64,000 bases of DNA from Dehalococcoides sp. JdFR-56 (GCA_002011495.1 MTNR01000072.1:7371-71370), one strand, 5' to 3'; positions 34,518 through 54,211 are shown, counted from the first letter of the stretch. Numbers and translations: made by a program. The notes: a model not told the origin generated them from the sequence alone.

Positions 34518-35168
34518 TCATTTATTGGGCGAGCCTTGAGAGTATTTCCTCAGCACACCTATCACTCGTCCTTGCACCTGGACCTCGTGAGGGCGTACAT
34601 AGAGAGGCGCCATGCTGCGATTCGCTGGTTGGAGGCGGATGCGCCCCGGCTCGCGGTAAAGCTTCTTTAAGGTAGCCTCCTGTCTCTCGGGCAGCCAGGC
34701 AGCTACCATCTCACCATCCTCTGCCACGCGGGTGGCCTCCAGGACGACAACATCGCCGTCATCCACAAGGGCATCAATCATCGATGTTCCCTTTACCCGG
34801 AGGGCGTAAGCCCGGGCCTGCCTGGACAGCATTTCCGCCGGCACCTCGATTGTCTCCTGCGCATGCGCAACGCTGTGCCACGTCTCCTCCGTGGGTACCG
34901 GGATGGGCTCGCCAGCGGCGATTGTTCCCAGAAGCGGCACGGCGCGGGCTCTTCTTCCGACCCCGGAGACCTCAATGCCCCTGGCGACCTCGGGCTCTCG
35001 TGTGATGAGGCCCTCTTCCTCAAGTGCGCTGAGGTGATACTTCACCACCGACTTTGAGCTGATGCCTAGTGCCTTTTGTATCTCGCCAATGGTCGGGGCG
35101 TAGCCTCTTTCCTCCACGAAGTTGCGGATAAACTCCACTATGCGCCAGCGGGTGGTGTATATTTTCAT
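34518..35168 (-). CDS. lexA: LexA repressor (winged HTH + S24 peptidase)
   Basis: N-terminus reads RGYAPTIGEIQKALGISSKSVVKYHLSALEEEGLI. The cleavage region reads PLLGTIAAGEPI. The catalytic Ser is in VKGTSMIDA and the Lys in EATLKKLY. Confidence 0.9.
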   Translation of the reverse strand: MKIYTTRWRIVEFIRNFVEERGYAPTIGEIQKALGISSKSVVKYHLSALEEEGLITREPEVARGIEVSGVGRRARAVPLLGTIAAGEPIPVPTEETWHSVAHAQETIEVPAEMLSRQARAYALRVKGTSMIDALVDDGDVVVLEATRVAEDGEMVAAWLPERQEATLKKLYREPGRIRLQPANRSMAPLYVRPHEVQVQGRVIGVLRKYSQGSPNK

Positions 35169-35216
35169 CTTTCACCTCCCGGAACAAGCGGTACCACTGG
35201 TTCATCGTCGGTTCTT

Positions 35217-35244
35217 ATTATAGCACGAAAGTTCTACACGTCAA
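35217..35244 (-). promoter_or_regulatory. lexA promoter with an embedded Cheo-like SOS box candidate
   Basis: The minus strand reads TTGACG (35244-35239), a 16-nt spacer, then TATAAT (35222-35217). The spacer contains AGAACTTTCGTGC, i.e. GAAC-N4-GTGC, one mismatch from GAAC-N4-GTTC. Confidence 0.5.
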
Positions 35245-35714
35245 GCGCTTTTAGGCAAATTTCTAGGGACCTGGCAGCTGATTTTCAGAGCGACTGGTCG
35301 TGCCGGGTCCTAAAATCGACCATTTTCTGGCTGGGAAGAGTGATGGTGAATTTGTAGCCCCCGAGGCTATGCCATGACGCCCCAGGCTTTTTCATCTCTA
35401 CCTTGGTGTCCGGCCGTCCCGGTGCTGATGTTATACCGCAGGGACGAATTAGCCCAATACGTGCTTAGCTCATGGAATGATGCTGAGAAATTGCAGGAAA
35501 AGATGATTGCTTACTGGAGACCGCTACGTCTGCCGATAGAATTTCAACATATGCCGTAATAAGGATCTTGCTTATACAGAACCTTTAGCATAGAATAGGC
35601 TCGTTAATATTAAAACGAGTACCCACGGACAAGCTCTGAAGCGTAATAGCTGAAATTTCCGGCACTCCTTAGATAGTTGGCATCACTTGTCCCCGGGGTG
35701 ATATTCTAACAGGA

Positions 35715-36563
35715 ATGGATATCTCGCAACTAATAAATAATCGACGTTACCCATTACTGTGGCAATTTTTGAAGTACCAGGTAGATATGCAATTTGCGGA
35801 TCTCCGTTGCCTCTTACAGCTTCCCAAAAGCGATCTAAATGCAGGATGCAACTTTGCTGCCGCTGCGGTACTTTTCAACATAATTGCAGGTTTCTCTGTC
35901 TGTTTCTACAATGCTTCCCTACAAGGGCTTAAATCACGAAAGGAACGAGGCGGTAGGTTCAAAGGACTTCTGCGAAAATATTACCCATGGGCAAATGAGC
36001 CTGTTGGGAAAGATACGGGTGTCAAAGTACTTTATGAAGCCGCCAGAAATCCTCTCGCACATAGCCTTGGAGTTTATGAGCCTGGAGCGGAGTGGCGGGT
36101 CATGCTTGGGAAGGATGCACTAACCGCATCACAAATTGAAACAATGGAAAATAGTAAGTCTCGACCAGTGTGGCTGCCTCCGACTATATCTAAGACGGAA
36201 TTAGCCTTTCAAATTTACATTCCCACTCTGTATTGGGGCGTACATTGCTTGGTGCGACGCCTGCTAAACGAGACAAAGCAGGCAGAGAGCGCAGAGAAAT
36301 TCCATATGGAGCTAAGTATAGAGTATGACCTCATAGCCGTGGAATCAAAGGTTTCACAACTGCAGACTTTTCTAAATGGCTCACCCAGCAAGCTTGGTCC
36401 TGAGTATGCAGAGAAGGTCAATGAGATCAATGTCATACTAGATAAGTTGGTGACACTTAGGAACATGACTCAGGAGCAAAACGAGAAAGTTACATGTTTG
36501 CAGCGTTCTTATCAAAGAATTCGTGATCAGATAGCCAAGGCAAAACTGTTCCCGGGTATGTGA
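35715..36563 (+). CDS. Hypothetical protein with a HEPN-like Rx4H motif and a C-terminal coiled coil
   Basis: 282-aa AT-rich ORF. It has LYEAARNPLAHSLG (R-x4-H) and a heptad-like C-terminal ~80 aa. Confidence 0.6.
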   Translation: MDISQLINNRRYPLLWQFLKYQVDMQFADLRCLLQLPKSDLNAGCNFAAAAVLFNIIAGFSVCFYNASLQGLKSRKERGGRFKGLLRKYYPWANEPVGKDTGVKVLYEAARNPLAHSLGVYEPGAEWRVMLGKDALTASQIETMENSKSRPVWLPPTISKTELAFQIYIPTLYWGVHCLVRRLLNETKQAESAEKFHMELSIEYDLIAVESKVSQLQTFLNGSPSKLGPEYAEKVNEINVILDKLVTLRNMTQEQNEKVTCLQRSYQRIRDQIAKAKLFPGM

Positions 36564-36762
36564 CACTTTGCGGGGAGGTAATATTCTGGCTGATTGTTAG
36601 ACGAACGTGGCGTGACATCCGTCGAAGTAAATGATAGACTTGGTTGCGACGCCCCATCTACCGCCATGACATGGTCTTTGTTCCTTCCGCCCGAAAATAC
36701 CCAGAGAACAGGCAGATAATCAACTTGCCTGACCAGCTACAGATGCGGAGAGGAGCTTCAAA

Positions 36763-37425
36763 ATGGACATAGCTGAGGCTAGAAAAGTCGGCAGGACATT
36801 CCTTGTAAGCTTGGATGAATTTCTGGCAGCCAACTACCAAAGGCTCAAGTGTCGGGAAATCTGCGACATATACTATCAGTTTTGGCACGATTTAAAGTAT
36901 TTTAGAGGCACTGCAACTGGTTTCACAGGCCTTTCGGAGTTCCTCATCTTTAGATTTCTGTACCACCAACTGGGCGGCGGTTTCGAGAGGAAGGATATTA
37001 GCCGCGATTTGAGTGAATTTGTAAGACGTGAGATTAGAATGGGCCAAGGTATACCTGTGCAATTAGGAGAGACAAAACGTACTCGGCCTGACATAGTTCT
37101 TTATCACGAAGAAAGACTCGTGGCTGTTGTCCAAATCAAACTGTTTGTCACTGGTGGATTAAAGGAAATAGAAAGGGAAATGAGAACCCTAAAGGGGCTC
37201 AAGCAGGCTAATCCTAACAATTTCCGCGCTCTGCTAGTAATCTATTCTCACTGTCCACCAGAAGGTAAGGTGCCGCTGGAACTTAGGAAGCATAAAGACA
37301 CGAATACTTGGTTCGACTACGTAATTCTCGAAGACAATGAGGAATTGCTGCAACAAAGAGTGAATAGTGCTCTCTCATTGGATCGCCTAGGATTGTACCG
37401 GCCCGACTCGCACAGTGGCCCATAG
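36763..37425 (+). CDS. Hypothetical protein, possible PD-(D/E)xK-like nuclease fold
   Basis: A GGAGAGGAG RBS lies 8 nt upstream. The sequence ...LSEFLIF...RPDIVLYHEERLVAVVQIKLF resembles the E...PD...(E/Q)xK arrangement. The family is not recognised. Confidence 0.55.
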   Translation: MDIAEARKVGRTFLVSLDEFLAANYQRLKCREICDIYYQFWHDLKYFRGTATGFTGLSEFLIFRFLYHQLGGGFERKDISRDLSEFVRREIRMGQGIPVQLGETKRTRPDIVLYHEERLVAVVQIKLFVTGGLKEIEREMRTLKGLKQANPNNFRALLVIYSHCPPEGKVPLELRKHKDTNTWFDYVILEDNEELLQQRVNSALSLDRLGLYRPDSHSGP

Positions 37426-37644
37426 TAAAGGGTCATCGGCCACCTTTACACTCTGACGATAGGTACAGTCCGAGAAGTGCCTTGGAAAGCCCAATAGTGA
37501 GGTTGTTAGAGTCGGGTAACGCGTGCCTTTCAGGACAGTTCCCCAATTTCTATTTGAGAACAAGCGACTTATTCCCGCGCTACAGCAACTTCTAATGTTG
37601 CACCATACTTTCCGATGGTTGGTGCTGTTGCATTTAATCTCCAA

Positions 37645-38313
37645 TTATCCCTGTTTTGGAACTATCGATACAATATCACGAGGTCCCTGTTGCTTAAAAC
37701 TATAGTCAATTTCTGGAACTTTTATTTGCCAATTCAAGTTTGTAAAAACATTTACTGGTTTAACTTCAGAAATGCATTTCTGTAATTCTTCTATCGCGTC
37801 GTCTTTTTCTGGGAAATACAAAGTACAAGTTAAGTTCTGTCCTGCATAACAAGTTAAGTTTATATTTGATGAAATGTGATTAAGTTCAATGTCCTTTAAT
37901 TTGGCATTTCCATTCACAGATTCAAATTGCACTTCAAAGACCGACCCATTAAACCACTCTACATCTAATCTTATCTCGTTATTTCCACAAAGATAGAGTT
38001 GCGAAAATCGTGGATGTAAGAACTGACTTATATTCTGCCTCTCATATTCTATAAGTCCCAATTTGGTTGTATCACGCTTCCATACACTCTCTGATGCTCT
38101 GAAAAAGGAAATTAACAAGAATACCGTAAAGAAGACGGATATGCCTATCATTGTGTATCGTACACTTCCACCCCATAGAATCGCAGTGACTATAGTAGGT
38201 AAAATGCCGAGAACGGAAAACCAAACAGTGAAACTATAGATACGACGTCGATTAAACCCATGTAATTGACGCCACATCTCCCATACCTCTCTAAAATAAC
38301 CTTTTCTGACCAT
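37645..38313 (-). CDS. Hypothetical 2-TM membrane protein with a beta-rich C-terminal domain
   Basis: 222 aa with two N-terminal hydrophobic helices (FTVWFSVLGILPTIVTAILW; MIGISVFFTVFLLISFF). No motif was recognised. Confidence 0.55.
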   Translation of the reverse strand: MVRKGYFREVWEMWRQLHGFNRRRIYSFTVWFSVLGILPTIVTAILWGGSVRYTMIGISVFFTVFLLISFFRASESVWKRDTTKLGLIEYERQNISQFLHPRFSQLYLCGNNEIRLDVEWFNGSVFEVQFESVNGNAKLKDIELNHISSNINLTCYAGQNLTCTLYFPEKDDAIEELQKCISEVKPVNVFTNLNWQIKVPEIDYSFKQQGPRDIVSIVPKQG

Positions 38314-38619
38314 ACTCCCACCTCCATATTTGCGGTGGAAGTAGTATAAGACAAGCTAAATCGTAATGCAACAGAACCGGGTGGTTCGTTTGCTTGGCAT
38401 CAGACGAATATAGCAGGCTTTCTCTCTTAGCCAATTCCAACGACAGGCTTGTGTCATGATTCCAGACCAACGTATAATAGCTTGGCGGAACCGCAAACCA
38501 CCCGCAAGACGAAGTGGTGACCACCGCTATCCATACGAGGACAAGATCGCCCAGATGGCGAGCAGCACTTGGCGCCATCATGGCAGACATAATAGTTACC
38601 ACACGGAAAGGAGGATAAA

Positions 38620-40941: not shown

Positions 40942-42135
40942 TCACAGCCCGATGACATTGAGTAGTATGCTGACTAATATTCCACCAATTAAGACTTCTA
41001 TAGCCCACTTCTTTGTTCGGCGCGTCGCATTATCAATGATGATCTTATTATTTCTGTAGCCCCTCACGACCGAGTCCCAAAAGAGACTAATTGAGATGAC
41101 TGCCATGCTAGCAAGGATTATGCAAAGAATTGCGGACCGTAGTGAGGGGATCACGCGGGCACTCACAGCATCCGCTTGAATTGCTCCTAGCCAGCCGATT
41201 TGCCATAGATACCACCCTAGCCAGGTGTCAAAGCCCAGTATTAGAAAAGACACAATGCCTCCTATTCTCGTCAGCAAAGGCAGGCCACCCAGCTCTTCCT
41301 TTGAAACCCTAACTGTCTCGGTGCCGAAATTTGTAGCTAGGTCGAGACTTGCTGCAACCAGAATCTTCGATACACCCCTTTTCGAGTCTGCGCCATAAAC
41401 GTTTCTTATAGATGAGTTGGCCGCTTGTGTCTGGAAGAACGCAGGAATGTTTCGTAGGGTCGTATCCACGAATTCTCTTAAAATTGCGATGTCGTTCTTT
41501 TCCCTAAATTGCCTGTAGTTCCATAGGACCCATGCATAGTACACAGCATCATCGGAACGAACCTTGTTTTTCGATACTGCTTTAAAGCAATAGTCGACTA
41601 CTTCCTTAAGCTTCTCATCGTTTCCCAGCTTTTCAAAGAGGAGCGCTGTAAATAAGAGATTTTTGGGGTCGTTGAAAACTGCAGATTCGGTGACTTCCTT
41701 CTCAAGCTGCTTAAGTACCTCGTTAAACGGGGGGACTTTGTTCCTTATGTCGGCCAATGATAGCAAGATGATCGCCGTATAAGCTATATTGTTGAATAGG
41801 GATCTATTTACAACATGTTTGCTAACAATGTCAGCCAACTGTTTTGCTTCAACGTTAACGCTAAGCCTCTTGTACCGTTTCAGACAGTAGGAGGCAAGCA
41901 CCGCTGAAGTAAGCTCCCTGTCAACAAACCTGCCAAATTTCTCCTGATTTATCTTTTGGTCAATCCAAGCGTTCATCCAGTCTACCAGGTTATCTGTCCC
42001 GGGACTTTCCACACCGTTCTTGAGAAGAAAGAAGAGATATATGGCGAACCCGAGCGGGTCAGTCGCCAAATCGGTTTGCGTTTCTTCCTCTATCCAGCTT
42101 CTCAGTTTCTCCCTCAGTACCTCTACCGAATCCAT
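40942..42135 (-). CDS. pAgo-associated membrane protein: ~290-aa helical N-terminal domain + 3 C-terminal TM helices (candidate effector)
   Basis: Third gene of the pAgo operon, with a 10-nt gap. TM segments are GGIVSFLILGFDTWLGWYLWQIGWLGAI, AILCIILASMAVISISLFW and WAIEVLIGGILVSILLNVIGL. No enzymatic motif was recognised. Confidence 0.7.
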   Translation of the reverse strand: MDSVEVLREKLRSWIEEETQTDLATDPLGFAIYLFFLLKNGVESPGTDNLVDWMNAWIDQKINQEKFGRFVDRELTSAVLASYCLKRYKRLSVNVEAKQLADIVSKHVVNRSLFNNIAYTAIILLSLADIRNKVPPFNEVLKQLEKEVTESAVFNDPKNLLFTALLFEKLGNDEKLKEVVDYCFKAVSKNKVRSDDAVYYAWVLWNYRQFREKNDIAILREFVDTTLRNIPAFFQTQAANSSIRNVYGADSKRGVSKILVAASLDLATNFGTETVRVSKEELGGLPLLTRIGGIVSFLILGFDTWLGWYLWQIGWLGAIQADAVSARVIPSLRSAILCIILASMAVISISLFWDSVVRGYRNNKIIIDNATRRTKKWAIEVLIGGILVSILLNVIGL

Positions 42136-42145
42136 ATGACTACCT

Positions 42146-43453
42146 TTAAATAAACCAAGGTCTTCGATTCAAGATCTCATTCACCTCAGGACTTGTCATA
42201 CCCTGCCATTCTTGTGCAGATATCGCCGCTGTAAGATAGGCAAGCTCCTGGGAGAATTGTAGGGTTATCGGCTGACGTACTAAAGGCGTCGCCGTTGCCC
42301 AGTCCAACTTGGTAAGGCCGAGTACTTGGAGTGCCAAGTCGTCCGCATCAAGAAACTTGACCGGGTGCTGTTCCGATCTGATATGTAGCAACTTTGGTGT
42401 CCCCATTCTTCTCCCGGCGATATCGGTATATCCTGTCGTAGAAAGCAGAACCTCATTTTCATTCCAATAAACGTAGTAACCCCTGGGGAAGCTCCCATCA
42501 TCAACCTTCAGGTCGTACATCCTGAACGGATGTGAGTCGTCAATGGATACAAAGGCTACATTGTAGTCCTTGACACGCTCGTCCAAGAACCGCTTGACGC
42601 CATCAATCTCCTCTCTTGCAAATTTTTTGTAGCAGTGTATTACTATGCTGCGAGGGGCTTGCCCTTTTTCAGCTTCAAATTTTGTTATCGCGCTGGAGAG
42701 CAACTCATGAAGTCTTTCTGCCTTCTGTTCCTTCTCGTACAGTTTCGCCGTCCCTTCAAAGAACATCCACCGACCGTAGCTATCGAACACGTTAACGTAT
42801 CCTACGAACTGGGGCAGTTCGCCGGCTCTGTGTTTATATGACACACAATTAGAGATAGACAGGCCAAGAATCATGTCTGTGTTCTTCATTTCGCTTTCTA
42901 GGACCCACGGGATGCCACCGGCCTTTGAGAAGATGGCTGAAGCTAGATTAAGATAGGACCAGCGTAGGTTCTCAAATGTCGACTCGGTGATCATTTGACT
43001 TGTGAACCCGTGAGACGCAAGCATAGCTTTAAGACGATAATACGGGGTTCTTGCAAAATACCTGCTGGTCTTGGGCACGTAGGCTAAAACGGTATCCACT
43101 TTCCTTGGGTCTTCGGCGGCAACCAACTCGTCAGCCTTCTTCTCGTATTCGTCGACGTCAAGTGATTCGGTTATGTATTCGCCTACTATCTCAATATTGC
43201 ACCTAAAAAACTGAGGCATTCCGCCGGGAAAAATCGGCGTGCCCACATTCAGTTCCCTAATAAGCGCATCTACCTGTTGCTTATGTGCTTCTGGGCAAAT
43301 CAGGACCATCCTCACCTTGGAGAGCCCCTTGTCGTACGGCCCAAACTGCCTCAGTCCCCAATACACCTGGGGATGGACACATGAAGTATCAACCTTGTCA
43401 AATAGCAAGCTGGGCTCGCTATCAATTCTATTTCCCTCAAGATACGTCGGCAT
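42146..43453 (-). CDS. Short prokaryotic Argonaute (MID + PIWI only), catalytically inactive
   Basis: 435 aa. The MID 5'-end pocket pattern is Y-x3-K...Q...K (YYRLK, TSQMI, FSKAGG). PIWI hallmarks are AIFSKAGGIPWVL, GTPKLLHI and a C-terminal PWFI. DEDX positions are degenerate (ILGLSIS for GxDV; IHCYKK for HRDG). Confidence 0.8.
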   Translation of the reverse strand: MPTYLEGNRIDSEPSLLFDKVDTSCVHPQVYWGLRQFGPYDKGLSKVRMVLICPEAHKQQVDALIRELNVGTPIFPGGMPQFFRCNIEIVGEYITESLDVDEYEKKADELVAAEDPRKVDTVLAYVPKTSRYFARTPYYRLKAMLASHGFTSQMITESTFENLRWSYLNLASAIFSKAGGIPWVLESEMKNTDMILGLSISNCVSYKHRAGELPQFVGYVNVFDSYGRWMFFEGTAKLYEKEQKAERLHELLSSAITKFEAEKGQAPRSIVIHCYKKFAREEIDGVKRFLDERVKDYNVAFVSIDDSHPFRMYDLKVDDGSFPRGYYVYWNENEVLLSTTGYTDIAGRRMGTPKLLHIRSEQHPVKFLDADDLALQVLGLTKLDWATATPLVRQPITLQFSQELAYLTAAISAQEWQGMTSPEVNEILNRRPWFI

Positions 43454-43457
43454 TGCC

Positions 43458-44300
43458 TTACACCCTTATCACAACAGGTTCACTGTCGAGACTTACTTTG
43501 AACTTACCAAATCTCAGTGGAAAGACATTTCTTCGGAGCTCTGTTATAATTGCTAACGTTCTCATAAGTCTATCTCTGGACGCTGTGAAACTGTCTAAAA
43601 ATGATTGTTTCCTCTGAAGGGCAATCACATTAAATCGTCGGCTCAAGTGCTCTAGCACTCGCTGTATGAGTTCTGGCTTGGGCTCTGGCAAAACATTTTC
43701 GGCAGGTACGTCCTCTTGTTTGAAGTCACGATAGTTCTTCACTTTGCATAGTGCCTGCCCGGAATCCGATATCCGGGTCTCGATCAGGTAACCATCAATC
43801 CTGTACCTTTCCTCCCTCCTGTAGTTAACAGAGAAGTCAGACAAGTCGGCCGGGCTCATGCCTTTCTCTAAGAGCTGACCGATAGTGCAATTGCTCCTGA
43901 AGATCAAATGTGGATCGACACATAATAATATCCCATTGGTGAGGTTGACGACTCGAAACTCGAATCCGTCATAGATGCAAAAGATGTCTTTGCAAGGCTG
44001 ATCCAATTCATCTTGCTCGCGGTACACTATATAACGTCCTTTTAAGCAATAACCGGCTTCTTTGAGTCCCAAGACAAACTGTTTCGTTACCAGCCTCATC
44101 AACATAGGCAGGGTTACCTCAATTGGCTGGAGTCCTTCCTTAGATTCGTGAGTAAAGTACTTCCCGTCATAATAGATCGTCTTTGCCTTCTCGTGCGGCG
44201 AGGGTGGGCCGTCCAGTTGATACAACATGCCTTGTTGGACTGTTAGGCCAAAGAGATTGCCAAATCTGTCGTACATTCTAAAGATATCTGGGCCTTGCAT
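43458..44300 (-). CDS. Stand-alone APAZ-like (Argonaute N/L1/L2-like) protein with no fused effector domain
   Basis: 280 aa, and first gene of the operon. Its stop lies 4 nt before the pAgo ATG. The mixed beta/alpha sequence (FEFRVVNLTNGILLCVDPHLIF...) and its position match APAZ partners of short pAgos. It is too short to carry a SIR2, TIR or Mrr module. Confidence 0.55.
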   Translation of the reverse strand: MQGPDIFRMYDRFGNLFGLTVQQGMLYQLDGPPSPHEKAKTIYYDGKYFTHESKEGLQPIEVTLPMLMRLVTKQFVLGLKEAGYCLKGRYIVYREQDELDQPCKDIFCIYDGFEFRVVNLTNGILLCVDPHLIFRSNCTIGQLLEKGMSPADLSDFSVNYRREERYRIDGYLIETRISDSGQALCKVKNYRDFKQEDVPAENVLPEPKPELIQRVLEHLSRRFNVIALQRKQSFLDSFTASRDRLMRTLAIITELRRNVFPLRFGKFKVSLDSEPVVIRV

Positions 44301-44401
44301 TCTTATCCCCCAGCCTTAAAGGTCTTTCCTTTTTCCTAGGATTTGAACTGCTCTTGCCAAGTCGGTCATGGCAATAATAGGCTGGAGCACGCTTTGATTG
44401 A

Positions 44402-44430
44402 ATTGTAGCGCCAACCGAATAGGATTTCAA
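44402..44430 (-). promoter_or_regulatory. Candidate promoter of the pAgo operon
   Basis: The minus strand reads TTGAAA (44430-44425), a 17-nt spacer, then TACAAT (44407-44402), about 100 nt upstream of ATG 44300. Confidence 0.4.
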
Positions 44431-45048: not shown

Positions 45049-46143
45049 ATGTACAAGATGATGACCGACAAAATAGCGGCCGATGTACGAGTGCAGTTGT
45101 TACTGCCTGCCAATCTTCACTTCCCTGAGCAACGCGGCATTGTAGAAAGCGTCAGGTTAGCCGATACTGAGGATTTTCAAATAACACTGAAGCACTCCGA
45201 CGGACCACAAGGAGACCTGCTCAAGAAATGGCGTAAGCGACGCCGTGATTTTGCAGGTGATAGTGACTACGAGGCACTTATCAACCATCTTGAGCGAACC
45301 CTGATCGTTCCACAGGTAGAAATCGTCTTGAAAAAACGGACTTTCGTAAAAGAGGAGCTGAGTATTCGAGACGGCAGGATCTTGATTCGAGGGGACGACC
45401 CTAAAAAGGCCAATTGGTTCCAGATAGCTAAGGAAATCGTCATTGTGTATGACTCATTGATTAATCATCTGTTCACGATGTTCGCCAACAAACCTTGGAA
45501 GAGGTTGGAATCTCTTAGCCTCAGCCCCAGTGGTCCGTTTGCAAATCTTTCGGATTTCGCACGCTGCTTACAATCTTGGAACGTCGAGTTCAGAGAAGTG
45601 TCTGGAGACGAGTGGGTCGGAGGCTTTTCCTTCCTCTCTGAGGCAGAGTCTTTGGAACGAGTGAGTTTGCAAATAGCAAGTGCTGATATCGGTTCTGAAC
45701 AACTACAAACTATCGCTGAAGGCCTGAAGTCGCTGATTGGCAACAAAGCGAGTTTGCCAACTGGATGGGAGTACCTGTACCTTGCATCTCTTCACCTCAA
45801 TAGAGGTGACGTCAGAAACACAATTATTGATCTAGACATAGCGGTCGATTATCTAGTTAAACGATACATCCGAGATAGAGTAAGCATATGCGAGGAAGCC
45901 ATTAATATAATCTTTGAAAAATCTTCCACAGGCAATCTGCTCACTATCGCGAAAATGCTGTCAAGTAGTGATAGTGAATCTGCCATGTGGGACGCATTTG
46001 AGAAACTCCACGGTTTCAGAAATGAAGTGTTACACAATTACCGAAGGCGTTTTGGTGCCTCGGAGCTGAAGATAATTGAAAGGTCACAAAACGACATATT
46101 ATCGCTATTGAGAGATCTTGCTGTAAGTTCAAGCACAGGGTGA
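45049..46143 (+). CDS. Hypothetical protein with a C-terminal HEPN-like domain (Rx4H)
   Basis: 364 aa. The C-terminal helical region has FEKLHGFRNEVLHNYRR (R-x4-H). The start may be ATG 45058, which has better spacing to AGAGGTG. Confidence 0.6.
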   Translation: MYKMMTDKIAADVRVQLLLPANLHFPEQRGIVESVRLADTEDFQITLKHSDGPQGDLLKKWRKRRRDFAGDSDYEALINHLERTLIVPQVEIVLKKRTFVKEELSIRDGRILIRGDDPKKANWFQIAKEIVIVYDSLINHLFTMFANKPWKRLESLSLSPSGPFANLSDFARCLQSWNVEFREVSGDEWVGGFSFLSEAESLERVSLQIASADIGSEQLQTIAEGLKSLIGNKASLPTGWEYLYLASLHLNRGDVRNTIIDLDIAVDYLVKRYIRDRVSICEEAINIIFEKSSTGNLLTIAKMLSSSDSESAMWDAFEKLHGFRNEVLHNYRRRFGASELKIIERSQNDILSLLRDLAVSSSTG

Positions 46144-46599: not shown

Positions 46600-48354
46600 C
46601 TAACACCAACCTAGTCTGGAAACTGCGTTAGCGTATTCAACAGCAATTTCCTCAAAGCGCGAGTAATCTCCGCCAAAGAGGCCTTGTCTTAAGGGTTCCC
46701 ATGACTCTTTTCGCTGTTTCGCTTCAGCTAATAGGTCTTTTAAGGGATTCTGCCCCTCGCTATTCCCTAATTTATAGCCAAACCTTCCGATTGGTCCCCA
46801 TATGCGTTTTCGTTCTTTGTTGAACAAATCAGCGTAAACCAAGGCAAACAGACATTCGAACCGGTCAAATGTTCTTTCATAAGTAACGTCGTCAGCCAAG
46901 AACTCCCGGAGCGGATTACGAAGTACGCGAGCCAGATGCTCACTAACCGGTGTATAAAAGTTTTGTCCCAGTATCTGGTTCATCGCTTTTTGGTCAGCTA
47001 TTTCCGCGGGGACTAGTTTCAAGGCGAGAGGCCTTCTTTCCCCATTATCGTTATACATTGGACCAGCCAGTAAGGCTGACAGAGTATCATATTTGTCTGC
47101 GGCTACCGCTGCAAGTCCCGATGTGTAGAGCAGCAAGAGGGCAGGATAGAGTCTGAGATTGAGCCAGACAACTAGTCCACCCTTACCGCCTTGCGGGTTT
47201 CCGATTCTCTCCAGGACTTTCACCCATAGTTTATGGTGAGCCGAGTTTCCCCAGTAACATCCTGTTGCCATTAGTGAGACAAGTGTTTCCAAGTTAGCCT
47301 CGTATTTGGCCAGGCGCTTCTTTAATTCTTCAACACTGAAGCCAACTCCCTCCACAGGAAAGTTGGTTTCAGATAGGATTCCATATGCTCTTTCTGTCTC
47401 TTCCATTACCAAGTCGTGCAAACGAATCTGATAACGCTCGTCCGTGAGATACCGTTTGGCACGGGCGATGGCCGCCTTGGTTGATAGCGGATGTGGCCGG
47501 GCATATTCTTCAAGCGCCATTACCTTTTCTGTTAGGTCACGAAAGAAGGTGTCTGCATCCTGTATCTCAATACGCTGGGCGCGGCGCAGTGTCATAATGC
47601 GCTGGGCGGAAGGGCTATCCTCGCCAAGAGACGTCCAGTAAGTAGTGAACCTGTGGCTCTGGCACCTCTCCAGTGCAGCCCGGAGCGCCGTATCCCACTC
47701 AGCAGACCATCCGCAAATGATAAGTCCAAACTCGTCGAAAATCCGGTCAAGGAGCGCATTCATTCTGTCATCAAACTGCGCCAGCTCCTCCGGGGTGTTC
47801 TTAATACGGGTATCCAAATAATCACCATGCACCTTTATTATGGTACACGACGTATGTACAATAGGAATAGCCCCCTCCGCAGCGTCGGGTGTGCTGATAA
47901 CAGTGGGCGTTACGCCCACATTCTCAAGTGCCGTTTCCAGCAGGCGATCAAAATTTGTGGTAATAATGACTCGGATATAGCCGTTGGCCACAAGCTCAGC
48001 AATGGCTTTATGGGCCTCAGTCGGGGTTTTAAGACCTTGCTCCCGCTCTTCTTCGTTCGGCTCGAAGTAGGTTCTCAATAAGCTGGCTCTTTCCGCCGGG
48101 GAACCCGCGGCTATTTCAAGTAATCTGGCATAGTCAGGATATGTGCCGAATTTGCTCTGATACCAATCCACAGGGTCAGCCTCACAATCTTCGCCCTGGA
48201 GATGAGCCACTTTACGTATCAGGTCAAGGATGACCTCCCATCCTGTAGGAATACCTGCTGCCCTAGATACCCCTGAACCTAGGAGCAGAGCATAAACGCC
48301 TTTCCCGCCATGTATTGAGAAAGCCAATGAAATTATCGGGTCAATCAGGGTCAT
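46600..48354 (-). CDS. SIR2-family (SIR2_2-like) protein with a ~320-aa C-terminal domain of unknown function
   Basis: The N-terminus has LLLGSGVSRAAGIPTGWE, TTNFDRLLE and IIKVHGD, so the SIR2-type Gly-rich loop, Asn and His are present. It starts 7 nt after the upstream RM gene stop. Confidence 0.8.
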   Translation of the reverse strand: MTLIDPIISLAFSIHGGKGVYALLLGSGVSRAAGIPTGWEVILDLIRKVAHLQGEDCEADPVDWYQSKFGTYPDYARLLEIAAGSPAERASLLRTYFEPNEEEREQGLKTPTEAHKAIAELVANGYIRVIITTNFDRLLETALENVGVTPTVISTPDAAEGAIPIVHTSCTIIKVHGDYLDTRIKNTPEELAQFDDRMNALLDRIFDEFGLIICGWSAEWDTALRAALERCQSHRFTTYWTSLGEDSPSAQRIMTLRRAQRIEIQDADTFFRDLTEKVMALEEYARPHPLSTKAAIARAKRYLTDERYQIRLHDLVMEETERAYGILSETNFPVEGVGFSVEELKKRLAKYEANLETLVSLMATGCYWGNSAHHKLWVKVLERIGNPQGGKGGLVVWLNLRLYPALLLLYTSGLAAVAADKYDTLSALLAGPMYNDNGERRPLALKLVPAEIADQKAMNQILGQNFYTPVSEHLARVLRNPLREFLADDVTYERTFDRFECLFALVYADLFNKERKRIWGPIGRFGYKLGNSEGQNPLKDLLAEAKQRKESWEPLRQGLFGGDYSRFEEIAVEYANAVSRLGWC

Positions 48355-48361
48355 TTCTCTC

Positions 48362-51300
48362 TTACTCCATCGGCCATCCCGGTATCAGCTCGTCAATCTC
48401 TTCCATCAGCCTAATCGTCTTTTTAATAGCAACCACTATCTTCTGATAATGCTGGGCTTCATCTAGAGTCAGGTTGCGCCCCTTGCGGTCTTTGAGCCAC
48501 TTCTGGCAGACCTGGTAGCCGCCGATGTGGAAGTTCCAGACCTCCGGCGGCACGCCCTCAAAATACTGTGCCTTGTTTATATAGACCCGCTGGTTATTCT
48601 CATCATAGGTTACCTTTTCAACCGTGTTGGTGCCGGTTACCGGGTATCTGGTAATCAGGTTATTAAGCACAGGGGATTCCATCAGGTGCAGGGATACCAG
48701 CTCAGCACCTTTTGCCACCAGTTTACTAAACAGCTCTTTATCCGAAGTCAGCGGCAGGCGCGGGAAGTCTATCTTCAAGAACTCGGCATAGCGGGTACGG
48801 TAGGTGGGCGAGTGGAAGACAGCATAGGCATAGTGGAAGATGTCCTCCGGGCCGAAGGTCTCGGTAAGGTCTCCCCTACCATCCTCAACAGGCTCCAGCC
48901 CCAGCTTCTTCGAGAAAGCTTTGATGAAGTCCGGCTTCAGGTTGGGACGGCGTTTGCCTCCTTCAAACTGCATCTCGCCCTCAGCAGCGTAAAGATAGAG
49001 CGGAAAGTTGACATTCCCTCCGCGGTAGAACAAGTTGAAGTCTTGTATTGAATCGGAGCAATATATAATGTCCCATAGCTCTGGCCCCACCACTTGCCCC
49101 GCTCTTCCTATACAGAGAGCCAGGTTCTCTCCCGCCAGCATGTGGCGCATGACCTCGAGGCGGGGCATACAGTGGAATCCCCTTGAGTGCCCAGTATAGT
49201 AGGTGTACCTGGTGTCAAACGGACGGTAGAGTATGGGAACCACCTTTTCTGCTTTCAAGCCTGAATCTTTAAGGTCTTTTTGCGCCAGGGCAACTTTCCA
49301 GTCACGAACGTCGCTGCCAAGATTGTATCTCTCCCTAGCTTCCTCGGTAGGAAGAGAGGCAAACTCAGTGACGACAGTCTGTACCTCTGCCTGAGACCAG
49401 CGTATAGCTAGCTCATCTCTGGCCGTCACAATGCCAACACTGTTAACAGGGAAGATATCGGTTATCTTCCAGCCTTTCTCATATTCGCTCAACAGACCTT
49501 GCTCAACGGGCACAAAGAGGTAAAACGGACTGCTCGGCGTAAGCTCTAACCACTCAGTCTTATCTATGTCTGTTTCCAGCAAGGTGTGATACTTTGTGCC
49601 TTCCCGAGGGTTAGGCCACTCACCGCGCTTTCCCCACAGCTCGGCATAGTGGACTGTGGCGGGGCCGGTTCTGCCTGGTTCCTTAATGAAAATACCAATA
49701 GCTACCCCTTGCTGGATATCAAAAACATTTTCATCTTTGCTACCATCTGGAGCAACCTCCTTTTTCTTCACGTTGCCGTGGAGATTGAGGATGTAAATGT
49801 CAGTAAAGCTATTCATCAGGGACTGGCGCATGCCGCGGAAGGTGGGGTTATCCAGGTAAGAATGATTGGTAATAAAGGCCAGGATACCCTGTCCTGTAAG
49901 CTCTATCCGCCACTGTCCAAAACGAATGAATTTAACATAGTCATCCTGAAGCCATTTCGGGTTTTTCTCCTTCAATAACTGGTTATCAACAATTTTGTAA
50001 TCTTCTATAAGCCTACCGATAAAGGTCTTTACACGCTTTTTTATTGGGGAAGTTGCTTTTATTTCTACCGGTGACCAGTAGACTTTTTCCTCGCCATCTT
50101 TAAGCGTCATGATTTTAAGTTCCAAGTGGTCAACGTATGTCTGCCCTGGTTGAATTTCCATTTCAACTTCGCTTCTATTAACTGAATGTCCGGAATAAGG
50201 AGGATTTCCCAGCACCACCATTATTGGCTTTTCTTTCTTAATTTGGGCAGCAGCGTTGGCTTCCTCCACGATGTACTCGTTGAAACCGGCCAGTTGCTCA
50301 GATTTTTTGAATGCCTCCTCAAGCGTATTGGTGAGGTAGATTCCCAGACGCTGCTCGCCCTGGAAATGGTAGCCCGTTTCCTGAAGCAGAAGCTCTAGCT
50401 TGAGGTGGGCGACGGCATAGGGAGCCATCAAAAGCTCAAAACCGAAAAGACGCGGCAGAAGCTTCTCTTCTACATACTCGCTCCACCAGCTCTGCTGCCC
50501 TTGGCTGATGATGGTCTGGTGAATCTCATTTATCACCATGTACAGGAATGTGGCAGTGCCCGCCGCCGGGTCAAGAATAAGTGTCTTCTCATCGGCTAGG
50601 CCCTGCGGGCGCTTGAAGCGCGTTTTCAAAAGATGGTCAATAGACCGCACGATGTAGGAGACCACCGGTTCCGGAGTATAGTAAACGCCGCGCATCTCCC
50701 GTATCTTCGGGTCGTACTCCTTGAGGAAAGTCTCGTAGAAATGGACTACTGCGTCCTCTTTGGCAGTGCGCTTGCCAAAATCTTTGCGGATTGCCTCCAT
50801 ATCAGCTTTGGCAAGGAGCTGCACCAAGTCATCAACCAGCCAGGCAATGCGATCATCTAATTCGAATGCGATATGATAGAACAGTTTCCGCAAAAAGGGA
50901 TTAGTTTTACGCACCAAGTAGGCAGCGCTCTGGCGGGTGAAGGATGTACCACCGTCGGAAGCGCAGCGTGCAGCAAAATACCCGTAGGCGATAGTCTGAG
51001 CATACATATCGGCGAACTGCTCCACCGAGAGGTCGGGGATAAGGTTGTCACGGAAGGCAGACAGCTGCACGTGCAGACTCTCGCTCTCTGGCTCTTTCTG
51101 GAAAGCGGCAACGATGAAGCTGCGAATCATCTGAGCTAGGCGTGCCATGCGCAGCGCAAGCTCCTTGGGCGTGCCTATTCCCTCAGCCCTGTGTGCAAGA
51201 AATTCGCCCAACAGCTCACCAACAGCCTTCTCCCCATCTTTGTCACGCTTAATTTTGCCTTCCTTGGTCAATCTACCTAGAGTTGCCGAAAGACGATACG

Positions 51301-51661
51301 CTCCATTGACGTACCACCGAAACTCCAGGTAGTTAGTGAGGACCAAGTTGGGCAGGGAAGACAAGTAGCGTTGAAATCTTTCTCCGTCTGACCCCTTTCC
51401 TTGCTCAATCTCGTCAAGAGGCTTACCGACATCCTTGGCCTCCAAGTAGCCAACCGTGGTGCTATCCTTAGTAATAACAAAATCAGGTGCGCCGCACTCG
51501 ATACGACTCGGCAAGCTGGTTGCGGATATCCCTTCGCCCAAAGACTCGAGCAGTACTTTCAACGACGGATAATGGGAGCCCTCGCTAGCATAACCCGCTG
51601 CCAGAGTCGTTTGAATACTTTTCAAATAAGCAGCAAATACACTAAGTTCACCCGGATTCAT
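48362..51661 (-). CDS. Type IIG/IIL-like single-chain restriction-modification enzyme (PD-ExK nuclease + gamma-class N6-adenine MTase + C-terminal specificity domain)
   Basis: 1099 aa. N-terminus has GAPDFVI...GYLEAKDVG (PD...ExK). MTase motif I is LDPAAGTATFL and motif IV is LGNPPYSG. The C-terminal FHIGGYQVCQKWLKDRKGRNL is typical of type-ISP-like specificity domains. Confidence 0.8.
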   Translation of the reverse strand: MNPGELSVFAAYLKSIQTTLAAGYASEGSHYPSLKVLLESLGEGISATSLPSRIECGAPDFVITKDSTTVGYLEAKDVGKPLDEIEQGKGSDGERFQRYLSSLPNLVLTNYLEFRWYVNGAYRLSATLGRLTKEGKIKRDKDGEKAVGELLGEFLAHRAEGIGTPKELALRMARLAQMIRSFIVAAFQKEPESESLHVQLSAFRDNLIPDLSVEQFADMYAQTIAYGYFAARCASDGGTSFTRQSAAYLVRKTNPFLRKLFYHIAFELDDRIAWLVDDLVQLLAKADMEAIRKDFGKRTAKEDAVVHFYETFLKEYDPKIREMRGVYYTPEPVVSYIVRSIDHLLKTRFKRPQGLADEKTLILDPAAGTATFLYMVINEIHQTIISQGQQSWWSEYVEEKLLPRLFGFELLMAPYAVAHLKLELLLQETGYHFQGEQRLGIYLTNTLEEAFKKSEQLAGFNEYIVEEANAAAQIKKEKPIMVVLGNPPYSGHSVNRSEVEMEIQPGQTYVDHLELKIMTLKDGEEKVYWSPVEIKATSPIKKRVKTFIGRLIEDYKIVDNQLLKEKNPKWLQDDYVKFIRFGQWRIELTGQGILAFITNHSYLDNPTFRGMRQSLMNSFTDIYILNLHGNVKKKEVAPDGSKDENVFDIQQGVAIGIFIKEPGRTGPATVHYAELWGKRGEWPNPREGTKYHTLLETDIDKTEWLELTPSSPFYLFVPVEQGLLSEYEKGWKITDIFPVNSVGIVTARDELAIRWSQAEVQTVVTEFASLPTEEARERYNLGSDVRDWKVALAQKDLKDSGLKAEKVVPILYRPFDTRYTYYTGHSRGFHCMPRLEVMRHMLAGENLALCIGRAGQVVGPELWDIIYCSDSIQDFNLFYRGGNVNFPLYLYAAEGEMQFEGGKRRPNLKPDFIKAFSKKLGLEPVEDGRGDLTETFGPEDIFHYAYAVFHSPTYRTRYAEFLKIDFPRLPLTSDKELFSKLVAKGAELVSLHLMESPVLNNLITRYPVTGTNTVEKVTYDENNQRVYINKAQYFEGVPPEVWNFHIGGYQVCQKWLKDRKGRNLTLDEAQHYQKIVVAIKKTIRLMEEIDELIPGWPME

Positions 51662-51910: not shown

Positions 51911-53164
51911 ATGCGAGTTCTAATCCTTTCAGCCACTATAGACAGGATGCAAAAATTTGGTAATCCACCCTATCATCCCCCGTATGACGTACACGTGGAC
52001 ACAGACGACCTGAACAGAGAAGATTTCAATTTTAGTGTGTTTGACTACGATGTCTCCATTGTTCATATTTGTGAGGGCCCCTACCACACGATAGGCTACT
52101 ATGCTAACCTTCCTAAATTACTTCGAGATTCAGCACTGGCCCTCGAACATGGCCATTCCGTCATTTGCCTGCCCCATTCGAGAAACTTTATTTCGAAGAG
52201 GCTTGACGAGAGAGGAATGTCAGCCTACGAATGGTTAGAGAAATTCGGAGTTCAGCTTCAAGACAACGAGGGCGAAAATATCAAACCTACAGGAGCTGGC
52301 CGTGCACAAGTAATTCAAGAATATCTCAATCATGCATTTAAGTACTATCAAATAGTGACTGAGTTCCCACCCACTTCAAGCAACAAATTGGCCGTGGTCG
52401 ATGATACTGAAATCGTGGTTGGGTTAGAATGCCAAGTAGGAAAAGGAAGTCTGGTTATTCTTCCACCACCCACATTTCATGAGAGCGAGTATTACTTGAT
52501 GATGTCACGAATGTTAGCCGTTGCACGTCGCTATTATGACCGTTCACAGCGCTACCTGGCTATAGGCGACGTTCCCGATTGGGTCAGCAATTACTTAGTG
52601 CCACGCGCTAAAGTTTTAGAAGAGCAAATTAGCAAGCTGTCAGAAGAAAAGGCGAAATATGACAAGTTAGCTTACGTTCTTTATGGAACAGGGGATGAGT
52701 TGGTGACTAGTGTTACTCTGCTACTCGACGAGTTAGGCCTTGAGGTTCAGCCACAACCACGTGGTGCCAATATCGACCTGAAAGCGAAGCATCCCGGACT
52801 GAATATTGGGTTTGCGATCGAGGTCACGGGGACAAAAGATATCATTCGCAAAGATAGTAATAAAATCGCGCAAGCCCGGCAGTATCTGAGCGAGCGGGCA
52901 GGGACTCCCGAAGAGAATGACAGACTTATAATAGTTGCCAACAGCCAGTATCACCTCGATCCGAAGGAAAGAAACAACGCAGGCTTTAGCCCAGAGGTTG
53001 TGAGACTACTCGGTAACACCGGAGTTCTAATGATTACTTCTTTGCAGCTTTATGAACAGTGGAAGGCAGTCCACGAGGGACACAAGTCATCTGATGACCT
53101 CATTCGGGAGTTGCACAGTAGTTCAGGCCTGTTTGGAAAGTCCTCACAGCCTGAGGTACTGTAG
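51911..53164 (+). CDS. Hypothetical protein; the C-terminal part is possibly restriction-endonuclease-like
   Basis: 417-aa AT-rich ORF with a central coiled coil (LEEQISKLSEEKAKYDKL). The C-terminus has ELGLEV...ANIDLKAK...FAIEVTGTKD...LIIVAN, resembling a D...ExK core. Confidence 0.5.
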   Translation: MRVLILSATIDRMQKFGNPPYHPPYDVHVDTDDLNREDFNFSVFDYDVSIVHICEGPYHTIGYYANLPKLLRDSALALEHGHSVICLPHSRNFISKRLDERGMSAYEWLEKFGVQLQDNEGENIKPTGAGRAQVIQEYLNHAFKYYQIVTEFPPTSSNKLAVVDDTEIVVGLECQVGKGSLVILPPPTFHESEYYLMMSRMLAVARRYYDRSQRYLAIGDVPDWVSNYLVPRAKVLEEQISKLSEEKAKYDKLAYVLYGTGDELVTSVTLLLDELGLEVQPQPRGANIDLKAKHPGLNIGFAIEVTGTKDIIRKDSNKIAQARQYLSERAGTPEENDRLIIVANSQYHLDPKERNNAGFSPEVVRLLGNTGVLMITSLQLYEQWKAVHEGHKSSDDLIRELHSSSGLFGKSSQPEVL

Positions 53165-53506: not shown

Positions 53507-54211
53507 TCAAGCGGCAGCCCTTCTTCTAATCACAAGAAACAATACAACTCCTATTAGTATGACCCCCGCAATGATGCCTATCGCAACCCAATTAATATAT
53601 CTAGTGTGAACCATCATGTAGCGGCCTGTTTCCACTGATTCAACATCAAAATACCAGGTTGCAGATTCATCATCGTGAACGTCTGCATTGGTTTCAACAA
53701 TCCGTCCCGGCAGATCGAGCGTCCAAGACATATTGAACACGGATTTCATCATCGCCTTGCCGAGTTCAGCAAATTCATCTTGTTCCTCAAGGCCTATAGC
53801 AGTTCCAGGAATTGTCACTTCGAAGTAATATTCTTTATACACCAATCTATCTTTCTCATAAAACACCGCATCTTGAAAACTTATTTCTGAACTATCTTCA
53901 CCGAAACCGGGGATTGCAATTTCCTCCCCTTCTTCAAAATCCTTCGTAGCGATAAGAGAAGCAGAGCCTTCAGAATGGCTAGTGGTAACTTCCCAACCAT
54001 CCTTTTTGAACTCTTGAATTATGTCTGAGCTGACAACAAGGTTGCCCATCATCCCCGTCCCACTGATTTGCACCTGCTGCCTGACATCTCCAGTTGGTTT
54101 CACTTTCGTATATAGGTCAATTGACACAGTGCCACAGCCCAGCGGGAATAACGCTAATACCAATTGGAGGATGAGTAACAATTTGAGATATCTAGAATAT
54201 GGGGCTTTCAT
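53507..54211 (-). CDS. Hypothetical lipoprotein with a C-terminal TM anchor
   Basis: Signal peptide with lipobox (LFPLGCG), a ~180-aa domain, then a TM segment (WVAIGIIAGVILIGVVLFLVI) followed by RRRAAA. Confidence 0.6.
   Translation of the reverse strand: MKAPYSRYLKLLLILQLVLALFPLGCGTVSIDLYTKVKPTGDVRQQVQISGTGMMGNLVVSSDIIQEFKKDGWEVTTSHSEGSASLIATKDFEEGEEIAIPGFGEDSSEISFQDAVFYEKDRLVYKEYYFEVTIPGTAIGLEEQDEFAELGKAMMKSVFNMSWTLDLPGRIVETNADVHDDESATWYFDVESVETGRYMMVHTRYINWVAIGIIAGVILIGVVLFLVIRRRAAA

Follow-up and report, generated by a model that had tools for sequence, protein, structure and literature searches.

Three adjacent genes on the minus strand of a 64,000-nucleotide (nt) stretch of DNA from Dehalococcoides sp. 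JdFR-56 (GCA_002011495.1 MTNR01000072.1:7371-71370), which we refer to as the window and within which positions are numbered, probably constitute a defence operon of the abortive-infection type. The system appears to be built on a prokaryotic Argonaute (pAgo) of long-B type that is PAZ-less, catalytically dead and split into two polypeptides, and its target-bound complex would act through a transmembrane (TM) effector to disrupt the membrane. The proteins encoded by genes 1, 2 and 3 are 280, 435 and 397 amino acids (aa) in length (Table 1), and their deposited entries (HEY83289-91, from a Dehalococcoidia metagenome-assembled genome, or MAG) are described as 'hypothetical protein'.

An initial annotation of the window, made from its sequence, had reported three tightly packed minus-strand genes, and this arrangement is recovered by open reading frame (ORF) calls. 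Genes 1 and 2 are separated by 4 nt (TAA-GGCA-ATG) and genes 2 and 3 by 10 nt, and a purine-rich stretch resembling a Shine-Dalgarno sequence lies ahead of every start codon in the operon. Because strong homologs exist for all three proteins, the operon is not a product of chance. The promoter assigned by the same annotation, TTGAAA-N17-TACAAT, is present about 100 nt 5′ of the first ATG and agrees with the sigma-70 consensus at 10 of 12 positions. Promoter-like sites are not enriched in the region (7 observed vs 5.4 expected from shuffles), however, and it is therefore only the position of this candidate that speaks for it.

The three genes also travel together. In all 12 related loci, most of them archaeal and including Nitrososphaerota, Bathyarchaeota and one Fervidobacterium-labelled MAG, genes for the N-terminal protein, the Argonaute and the effector occur in this order with near-identical tiny gaps. 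The identities of all three proteins drop together from locus to locus. A survey of synteny among homologs, which the initial annotation had proposed as a check, thus bears out a conserved module.

The Argonaute and its N-terminal partner

The product of gene 2 matches the PADLOC pAgo model PDLC02436 (E = 2.4e-89), and its best Protein Data Bank (PDB) match is the long-B pAgo EcAgo, with other solved Argonautes matching as well. Homologs of this protein fall into more than 130 clusters. The MID pocket and PIWI hallmarks that had been read from the sequence at the outset are present (YYRLK, SQM, SKAGGIPWVL, GTPKLLHI and the C-terminal PWFI), and in an alignment of 38 family members the MID residues that form the 5′-phosphate pocket, Y138, K142, Q153 and K177, are invariant, while the C-terminal W-F is nearly so. 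To read the catalytic positions, we aligned the protein residue by residue with CpAgo and CbAgo, both of which are active enzymes. The DEDX tetrad is replaced, as had also been claimed, and its positions are occupied by S, K and Q: GLS stands in place of GLD, 'CYKKF' is found where 'RDG' has its aspartate, and the Q of 'QFSQ' aligns with the final residue of the tetrad. Given that the catalytic positions are replaced and the pocket residues are invariant, we read the 435-aa protein from these alignments as a guide-binding, non-cleaving pAgo.

Two comparisons place the product of gene 1 directly before this MID-PIWI unit. It matches positions 506-689 of the 1121-aa PADLOC pAgo model PDLC02394 (E = 1.3e-13), of which positions 705-1121, immediately following, are matched by the 435-aa protein. 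A single-chain pAgo of 729 aa likewise aligns over its residues 9-285 with the 280-aa protein (33% identity, E = 2e-41) and over its residues 304-729 with the 435-aa protein. The AlphaFold model of the 280-aa protein, with a predicted local distance difference test (pLDDT) score of 91 and a predicted template modelling (pTM) score of 0.85, is N-L1-L2-like throughout. When this model was compared with the PDB by Foldseek, the N-terminal half of RsAgo was the best match (E = 6e-9, TMq 0.6), followed by KmAgo, TtAgo and eukaryotic Argonaute/PIWI proteins; there was no APAZ protein among the top 50 matches. The similarity to the Argonaute N-L1-L2 region that had been expected of such a model was therefore found. 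By sequence, searches of the PDB with single and profile queries returned nothing, including AfAgo-N, SiAga1, EcAgo and RsAgo, and hhalign comparisons with the N-terminal halves of EcAgo and EaAgo were negative. The protein is accordingly tied to solved Argonautes by structure comparison only, and failure at the sequence level is usual for this fast-evolving region.

A length of 280 aa leaves the protein no space for a PAZ or an effector domain. Its homologs number 17 and are 280-295 aa long. No match was obtained in Pfam or NCBIfam and none in PADLOC other than PDLC02394, and none of the three databases indicated a TIR, SIR2, DREN/Mrr, HNH or other effector domain, in agreement with the original description of an effector-less protein. 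From the alignments and the model we take the gene 1 product to be the N-L1-L2 half of a long Argonaute that lacks PAZ, equivalent to APAZ, Aga1 and AfAgo-N. The proposal that it is an APAZ module thus holds insofar as it is an N-L1-L2/APAZ-equivalent subunit free of an effector; its predicted fold is closest to that of RsAgo.

Placement of the pAgo was judged from the scores of solved Argonautes against the window family profile, which are profile scores and not a tree. EcAgo, the long-B pAgo of EcBPAN, scores highest at 146 bits, followed by RsAgo (long-B, 104 bits), GsSPARSA Ago (short, 103 bits), the SPARTA Agos (short, 95-98 bits), CpAgo (long-A, 97 bits), AfAgo (truncated long-B, 60 bits) and SiAgo (8ZNJ, SiAgo-like, 41 bits). 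The MID domain of EcAgo starts near residue 300, and the part before it is the same size as the 280-aa protein. PADLOC 'Class II' full-length models reach 171 bits vs 113 bits for 'Class I' short models, and the 435-aa protein has single-chain relatives of about 726 aa with 40-46% identity. Because EcAgo gives the top profile score, single-chain relatives exist and RsAgo is the best fold match for the 280-aa protein, the pair is probably a split, PAZ-less pAgo of long-B type, the 'pseudo-short' type exemplified by AfAgo. On the same grounds, including the correspondence of the 280-aa protein to the N-terminus of the single-chain relatives, we set aside the label 'short Argonaute' that the operon was first given.

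That label implied a genuine short pAgo system, similar to the S2B type, whose APAZ protein would have been stripped of its effector domain while a membrane protein was taken on as a separate effector. The scores of GsSPARSA and SPARTA Agos nearly equal that of RsAgo, and the second-best PADLOC model, PDLC02394, describes a chain of about 1120 aa in which an extra N-terminal domain precedes N-L1-L2 and MID-PIWI, a form also taken by a Rubrobacter plasmid protein and resembling effector-APAZ-pAgo fusions. We nevertheless consider a short origin unlikely, because the long-B EcAgo is the clear top score, RsAgo rather than any APAZ protein heads the structural matches of the 280-aa protein, 'Class II' models outscore 'Class I' models, and the single-chain relatives, with an effector encoded separately downstream, show the architecture of long-B systems.

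The helical membrane protein and its proposed action

The model of the 397-aa product of gene 3 consists of an all-helical domain, with pLDDT of about 90 over residues 1-235, and long helices beyond it at low confidence. Hydropathy analysis places TM segments at residues 282-302, 323-357 and 376-397, and the initial description of a helical soluble domain followed by three C-terminal TM helices is thereby supported. No match to the protein was found in Pfam, NCBIfam or PADLOC, and sequence and profile comparisons with the PDB gave at most weak, non-significant resemblances to alpha/alpha-toroids. Foldseek comparison of the model with the PDB also gave no significant match, the nearest structures being transcobalamin, GH105 and C3d (TMq 0.40-0.46).

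A word-index search returned 8 homologs of this protein, and the family grew to 96 clusters when 1.84 billion representatives were searched exhaustively with a profile. Residues D26 and G29 (both in a DPLG motif), D72 and N159 of the helical domain are invariant or nearly so, and the domain is kept across family members whose C-termini differ. Three TM helices are present in most of the 96 clusters, and a minority end instead in soluble tails. Some of these tails carry Rx4H motifs typical of HEPN domains ('RNIAxH', 'LRNKKIH') and others a conserved 'SERAHIEKR' segment; the alternative C-termini have no Pfam matches, and the HEPN assignment is made from the Rx4H motif only. As TM and soluble tails are exchanged on one helical domain, we argue that the N-terminal domain is the coupling module and the C-terminus the toxic part.

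We compared this family with characterised effectors at the level of sequence by using a deep family profile (effective number of sequences, or Neff, about 7) and the sequences of EabAgaM, EcbAgaN and SiAga2 taken from the supplements of the respective papers. Against EabAgaM (bAgaM, og_100), hhalign gave a probability of 0.1% with an 8-sequence profile and of no more than 2% with a 68-sequence profile, and hmmsearch gave about 0 bits. Sequence comparison with EcbAgaN revealed no similarity, helical domains included. The possible resemblance of the third protein to Aga2 that had been anticipated did not materialize by sequence, as the profile scored about 2 bits against translated SiAga2, whose sequence came from a machine-read supplement with frame errors.

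The mechanism that we favour is proposed by analogy with characterised systems. The AfAgo-N/AfAgo and SiAgo/Aga1 complexes, the strict co-occurrence of the genes and the existence of fused relatives suggest that the 280-aa protein pairs with the 435-aa protein and that the resulting heterodimer corresponds to a single-chain, EcAgo-like PAZ-less pAgo of about 720 aa. This heterodimer would load a 5′-phosphorylated small guide, which is likely to be RNA as in RsAgo, EcAgo, fAfAgo and SiAgo, and would then base-pair with invader DNA. The target-bound complex could engage the helical domain at the N-terminus of the 397-aa effector, whose three C-terminal TM helices would oligomerise or rearrange so that the membrane is compromised, and the infected cell would die or arrest before the invader spreads. 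The division into guide sensor, adaptor and membrane-disrupting effector put forward in the initial annotation is in keeping with our results, in that a dead pAgo, an N-L1-L2 subunit and a separate membrane effector form one conserved module in a defence island; its function is presumptive.

Several points weigh against this mechanism. The TM part of the 397-aa model has low confidence, and the long-B placement derives from profile scores in which RsAgo is barely ahead of GsSPARSA Ago. Since the effector shows no sequence similarity to EabAgaM, EcbAgaN or SiAga2 and no significant fold match in the PDB, the argument is one of architecture and not of homology. No stable Ago-effector complex was detected for EaBPAM, which indicates that direct recruitment is not universal (PMC10620215). 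Finally, the operon is found in a bacterial MAG although its nearest relatives by sequence are archaeal, and any expression or function in this host is putative.

Plasmids can be repressed by long-B pAgos of the RsAgo type in the absence of an effector, which counts in favour of an alternative in which guide-directed binding alone provides immunity and the membrane protein serves as an anchor or regulator, holding the Argonaute complex at the membrane where it might, for instance, intercept DNA on entry. The helical domain has no recognisable catalytic motif, and EabAgaM is non-toxic alone and forms no stable complex with its Ago (PMC10620215), which would also suit an anchor. We judge such a role improbable, because the replacement of the TM tail by HEPN-motif tails on the same helical domain is expected of toxic modules and not of anchors, and because killing by EaBPAM and SiAga2 is TM-dependent (PMC10620215; bioRxiv 10.1101/2021.12.09.471704).

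The 397-aa protein may belong to a distinct family of Argonaute-controlled membrane effectors that is unrelated, even at the level of the fold, to bAgaM, SiAga2 and Af1317. Its alpha/alpha-toroid-like helical domain of about 280 aa, in which acidic and polar residues are invariant (DPLG, D72, N159 and D196), might then be a general adaptor that allows split or single-chain dead pAgos to drive interchangeable TM and HEPN modules, and activation could differ from the models of an EcBPAN octamer and of a SiAga2 lipid pocket. We offer this as a speculation that has perhaps one chance in four of proving correct. Were it true, the Dehalococcoidia copy would bear witness to an entire immune module having passed recently from archaea to bacteria.

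Genomic surroundings and distribution of the module

The AT-rich defence island recognised in the initial annotation is evident, as the G+C fraction of the operon stretch is 0.45-0.48 vs 0.55-0.60 in the flanks and the neighbouring genes include those for a restriction-modification (R-M) enzyme, a SIR2 protein and an RmrA-like protein (Table 1). At the boundaries of the island we found neither tRNA genes nor Rfam families, and no repeats that would delimit it. The low G+C content, the archaeal nearest relatives and the existence of decayed copies elsewhere (loci L008 and L011) could be taken to mean that the operon reached this bacterial genome by horizontal transfer and is now a non-functional remnant. 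This seems highly improbable to us, however, as the three ORFs are intact and full length, every family-invariant residue is kept, and the genes have Shine-Dalgarno-like sequences and a plausible bacterial promoter. In locus L008 (3900-6750) both the Argonaute and effector genes are frameshifted, and in L011 (5320-5610) the effector is reduced to a 94-aa stub.

Table 1. Features of the window, numbered from the first letter of the 64,000-nt stretch.
Feature	Position	Strand	Description
Gene 1	43458-44300	-	280-aa N-L1-L2 subunit without effector domain (predicted)
Gene 2	42146-43453	-	435-aa MID-PIWI Argonaute, predicted catalytically inactive, YKQK 5′-phosphate pocket
Gene 3	40942-42135	-	397-aa putative effector, helical domain and three predicted TM helices
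Gene 3, residues 1-281	41293-42135	-	Conserved alpha-helical (alpha/alpha-toroid-like) cytoplasmic domain; presumed pAgo-coupling module
Gene 3, residues 282-397 and stop	40942-41292	-	Three predicted TM helices; presumed toxic module
Promoter candidate	44402-44430	-	Sigma-70-like, TTGAAA-N17-TACAAT, 10/12 matches
SIR2 protein	46600-48354	-	584 aa; PADLOC PDC-S65 over full length, E = 1e-223
Type IIG R-M enzyme	48362-51661	-	1099 aa; PADLOC E = 4.5e-296
R-M and SIR2 gene pair	46600-51661	-	SIR2 gene starts 8 nt after R-M gene; resembles one operon
RmrA-like protein	54900-56015	-	Helix-turn-helix/M78 (IrrE-like) peptidase protein; PADLOC RmrA models
ORFs adjoining RmrA-like gene	51911-53164, 53507-54211		No family matches
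Divergent ORF	45049-46143	+	364 aa; no family match
Second low-GC patch	35000-38500		G+C 0.41-0.47; three ORFs without family matches

The arrangement of the SIR2 and R-M genes suggests that PDC-S65 may work with the R-M enzyme here. We also considered whether this nearby SIR2 protein could be the real effector of a BPAS-like system, with the membrane protein incidental, but although its SIR2 domain is common to pAgo-associated SIR2-APAZ models (PDLC02419, E = 1.3e-33) and, among the effectors of long-B pAgos, Sir2-like proteins form the second major type (PMC10954474), we rejected this reading as having next to no likelihood, because two opposite-strand genes separate the SIR2 gene from the operon, it lies just downstream of the R-M gene, it matches a stand-alone candidate system over its full length, and SIR2 is found beside the module in none of the 12 related loci, where the helical effector is always present.

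The ORF divergent from the pAgo operon has a C-terminal segment, 'GFRNEVLHN', that contains the HEPN-typical Rx4H, and may be a defence or toxin gene in its own right. Within the second low-GC patch, one 222-aa protein has N-terminal hydrophobic segments and a borderline match to the PADLOC model 'CARF, 2 TMs' (E = 1e-3). A conserved upstream regulator was sought as a further component and rejected: the small divergent genes upstream differ between loci, and the module therefore comprises the three genes.

Single-chain relatives are associated with the same effector family. In a bacterium of the Pyrinomonadaceae (L005), the gene for a 729-aa single-chain pAgo precedes one for a 433-aa TM effector belonging to this family. 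These two genes adjoin tnsA-, tnsB- and tniB-like genes (L005 and L006, 1-8600), and the pair may be cargo of a Tn7-like transposon. At loci L003, L004 and L010, the module has an effector with a soluble tail and is located directly upstream of the BREX genes brxA, brxB and brxC; the occurrence of the same arrangement in Nitrososphaerota- and Fervidobacterium-labelled contigs hints at mis-binning or very recent transfer. A more distant example is found on a plasmid of Haloplanus rallus (L015, 3009-6615), which encodes proteins of 329, 436 and 438 aa, the second being a Piwi protein and the third a helical protein that has TM segments in its C-terminal part. Identity is about 25%, and the effector weakly matches the N-terminal 'DPL' region of our effector profile. 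The three-gene plan thus reaches well beyond the family represented in the window.

A scan of a genome collection with the effector alignment, using one restrictive pattern, returned only three archaeal loci, and plasmid matches were distant (30% identity or less). In viral contigs, only a fused relative of about 1140 aa turned up. Such polypeptides, of the PDLC02394 type, consist of an N-terminal domain annotated as 'RNA-binding domain' joined to N-L1-L2 and MID-PIWI; one is encoded on Rubrobacter radiotolerans plasmid 3 (L014, 1838-5254), beside a Tn3 transposase gene, and another on an IMG/VR contig (L013, 699-4124). Our guess is that their N-terminal domain is Schlafen-like.

Comparison with known pAgo systems

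The 'truncated' long-B pAgos of archaea and bacteria have been recognised as split systems that include an upstream N-terminal protein, and AfAgo was found to pair with such an N-L1-L2 protein as an AfAgo-N/AfAgo heterodimer (Manakova et al., NAR 2024; PMC10954474). In these split long-B systems, the downstream effector has a common alpha-helical region joined to a TM, HEPN, TIR or PD-(D/E)XK module (PMC10954474). The initial annotation had put the operon forward as its best candidate for a poorly described or undescribed system, while noting that membership of described families would leave its function standing but not its novelty. As the architecture had already been set out for both archaea and bacteria (PMC10954474), the first of these statements is not supported and the reservation largely applies, although no sequence link to EabAgaM or SiAga2 was found. 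The gene layout was described computationally in 2024, and the locus is a further example of it and does not constitute a novel type.

The current picture of pAgo immunity is unchanged by this locus. What remains is a rare effector family, experimentally unstudied, and the occurrence in a bacterium of a module that is otherwise mostly archaeal. Apart from the structure of the AfAgo-N/AfAgo heterodimer, split long-B ('pseudo-short') systems with membrane effectors are represented by computational descriptions only. The Dehalococcoides operon is a compact, intact, bacterial-encoded case with a bacterial-type promoter and ribosome-binding sites, and may lend itself to tests in E. coli more readily than archaeal versions do. 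With 96 clusters and clear swapping of TM and HEPN tails, the effector family is small and well suited to asking how one adaptor couples target recognition to different toxic outputs.

The closest counterpart in gene order is the system of AfAgo-N, AfAgo and Af1317, which has the same succession of an effector-less N-L1-L2 protein, a dead MID-PIWI protein and a downstream helical protein with a C-terminal TM region, and which is likewise located in a low-GC island. The modular C-terminus of the window family's effector, TM or HEPN-like, also agrees with the split long-B systems in general (PMC10954474). By sequence, AfAgo is nevertheless distant, with 60 bits against the window family profile vs 146 bits for EcAgo, and the profile of the N-terminal protein gives no match to AfAgo-N. 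AfAgo's own effector is uncharacterised, and in the library searched we found no later paper characterising an effector of this type.

In BPAM systems, a long-B pAgo is encoded with a TM protein, and cell killing by EaBPAM requires the TM region (Song et al., Nat Commun 2023; PMC10620215). The window operon resembles these systems in having a dead pAgo with long-B affinity and a separate downstream effector that combines a helical part with a C-terminal TM region of about 100 aa, and abortive infection would be expected of it; moreover, single-chain relatives of its pAgo (L005) carry its effector family. It differs in that its pAgo is split into 280-aa and 435-aa polypeptides, whereas that of BPAM is a single chain, and in that its effector, at 397 aa with three TM helices and a helical domain of about 280 aa, is unlike the 301-aa EabAgaM. 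EcBPAN (EcAgo with EcbAgaN) provides the closest solved relative of the window MID-PIWI protein, with a pre-MID part of about 300 aa comparable to the 280-aa protein. In the structure reported in 2026, target-bound EcAgo docks the helical N-terminal domain of the effector and causes its toxic domain to oligomerise (PMC13535254). EcAgo consists of one chain, however, and the module carried by EcbAgaN is a PD-(D/E)XK nuclease in place of TM helices (PMC10620215, PMC13535254).

The SiAgo-Aga1-Aga2 system also has three components, its MID-PIWI pAgo being accompanied by an N-L1-L2-like partner and a membrane effector, each a protein of its own. SiAga2 is bound by SiAgo-Aga1 only when the latter carries both guide and target, and it depolarises the membrane (PMC11788926). 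In contrast to the window pAgo, SiAgo falls in a different clade (41 bits vs 146 bits for EcAgo), and neither Aga1 nor Aga2 is detectable by sequence from the window proteins. SiAga2 has two TM helices and is encoded upstream of SiAga1 (PMC11788926), whereas the effector in the window has three and is encoded last, downstream of the pAgo. Finally, SPARTA, SPARSA, SPARDA and SPARHA share with the window operon a dead MID-PIWI protein, an N-L1-L2/APAZ-type partner with which it forms a heterodimer (presumably so in the window), and the logic of abortive infection. In all four the effector is fused to APAZ, whereas the putative effector described here is a third, separate membrane protein.

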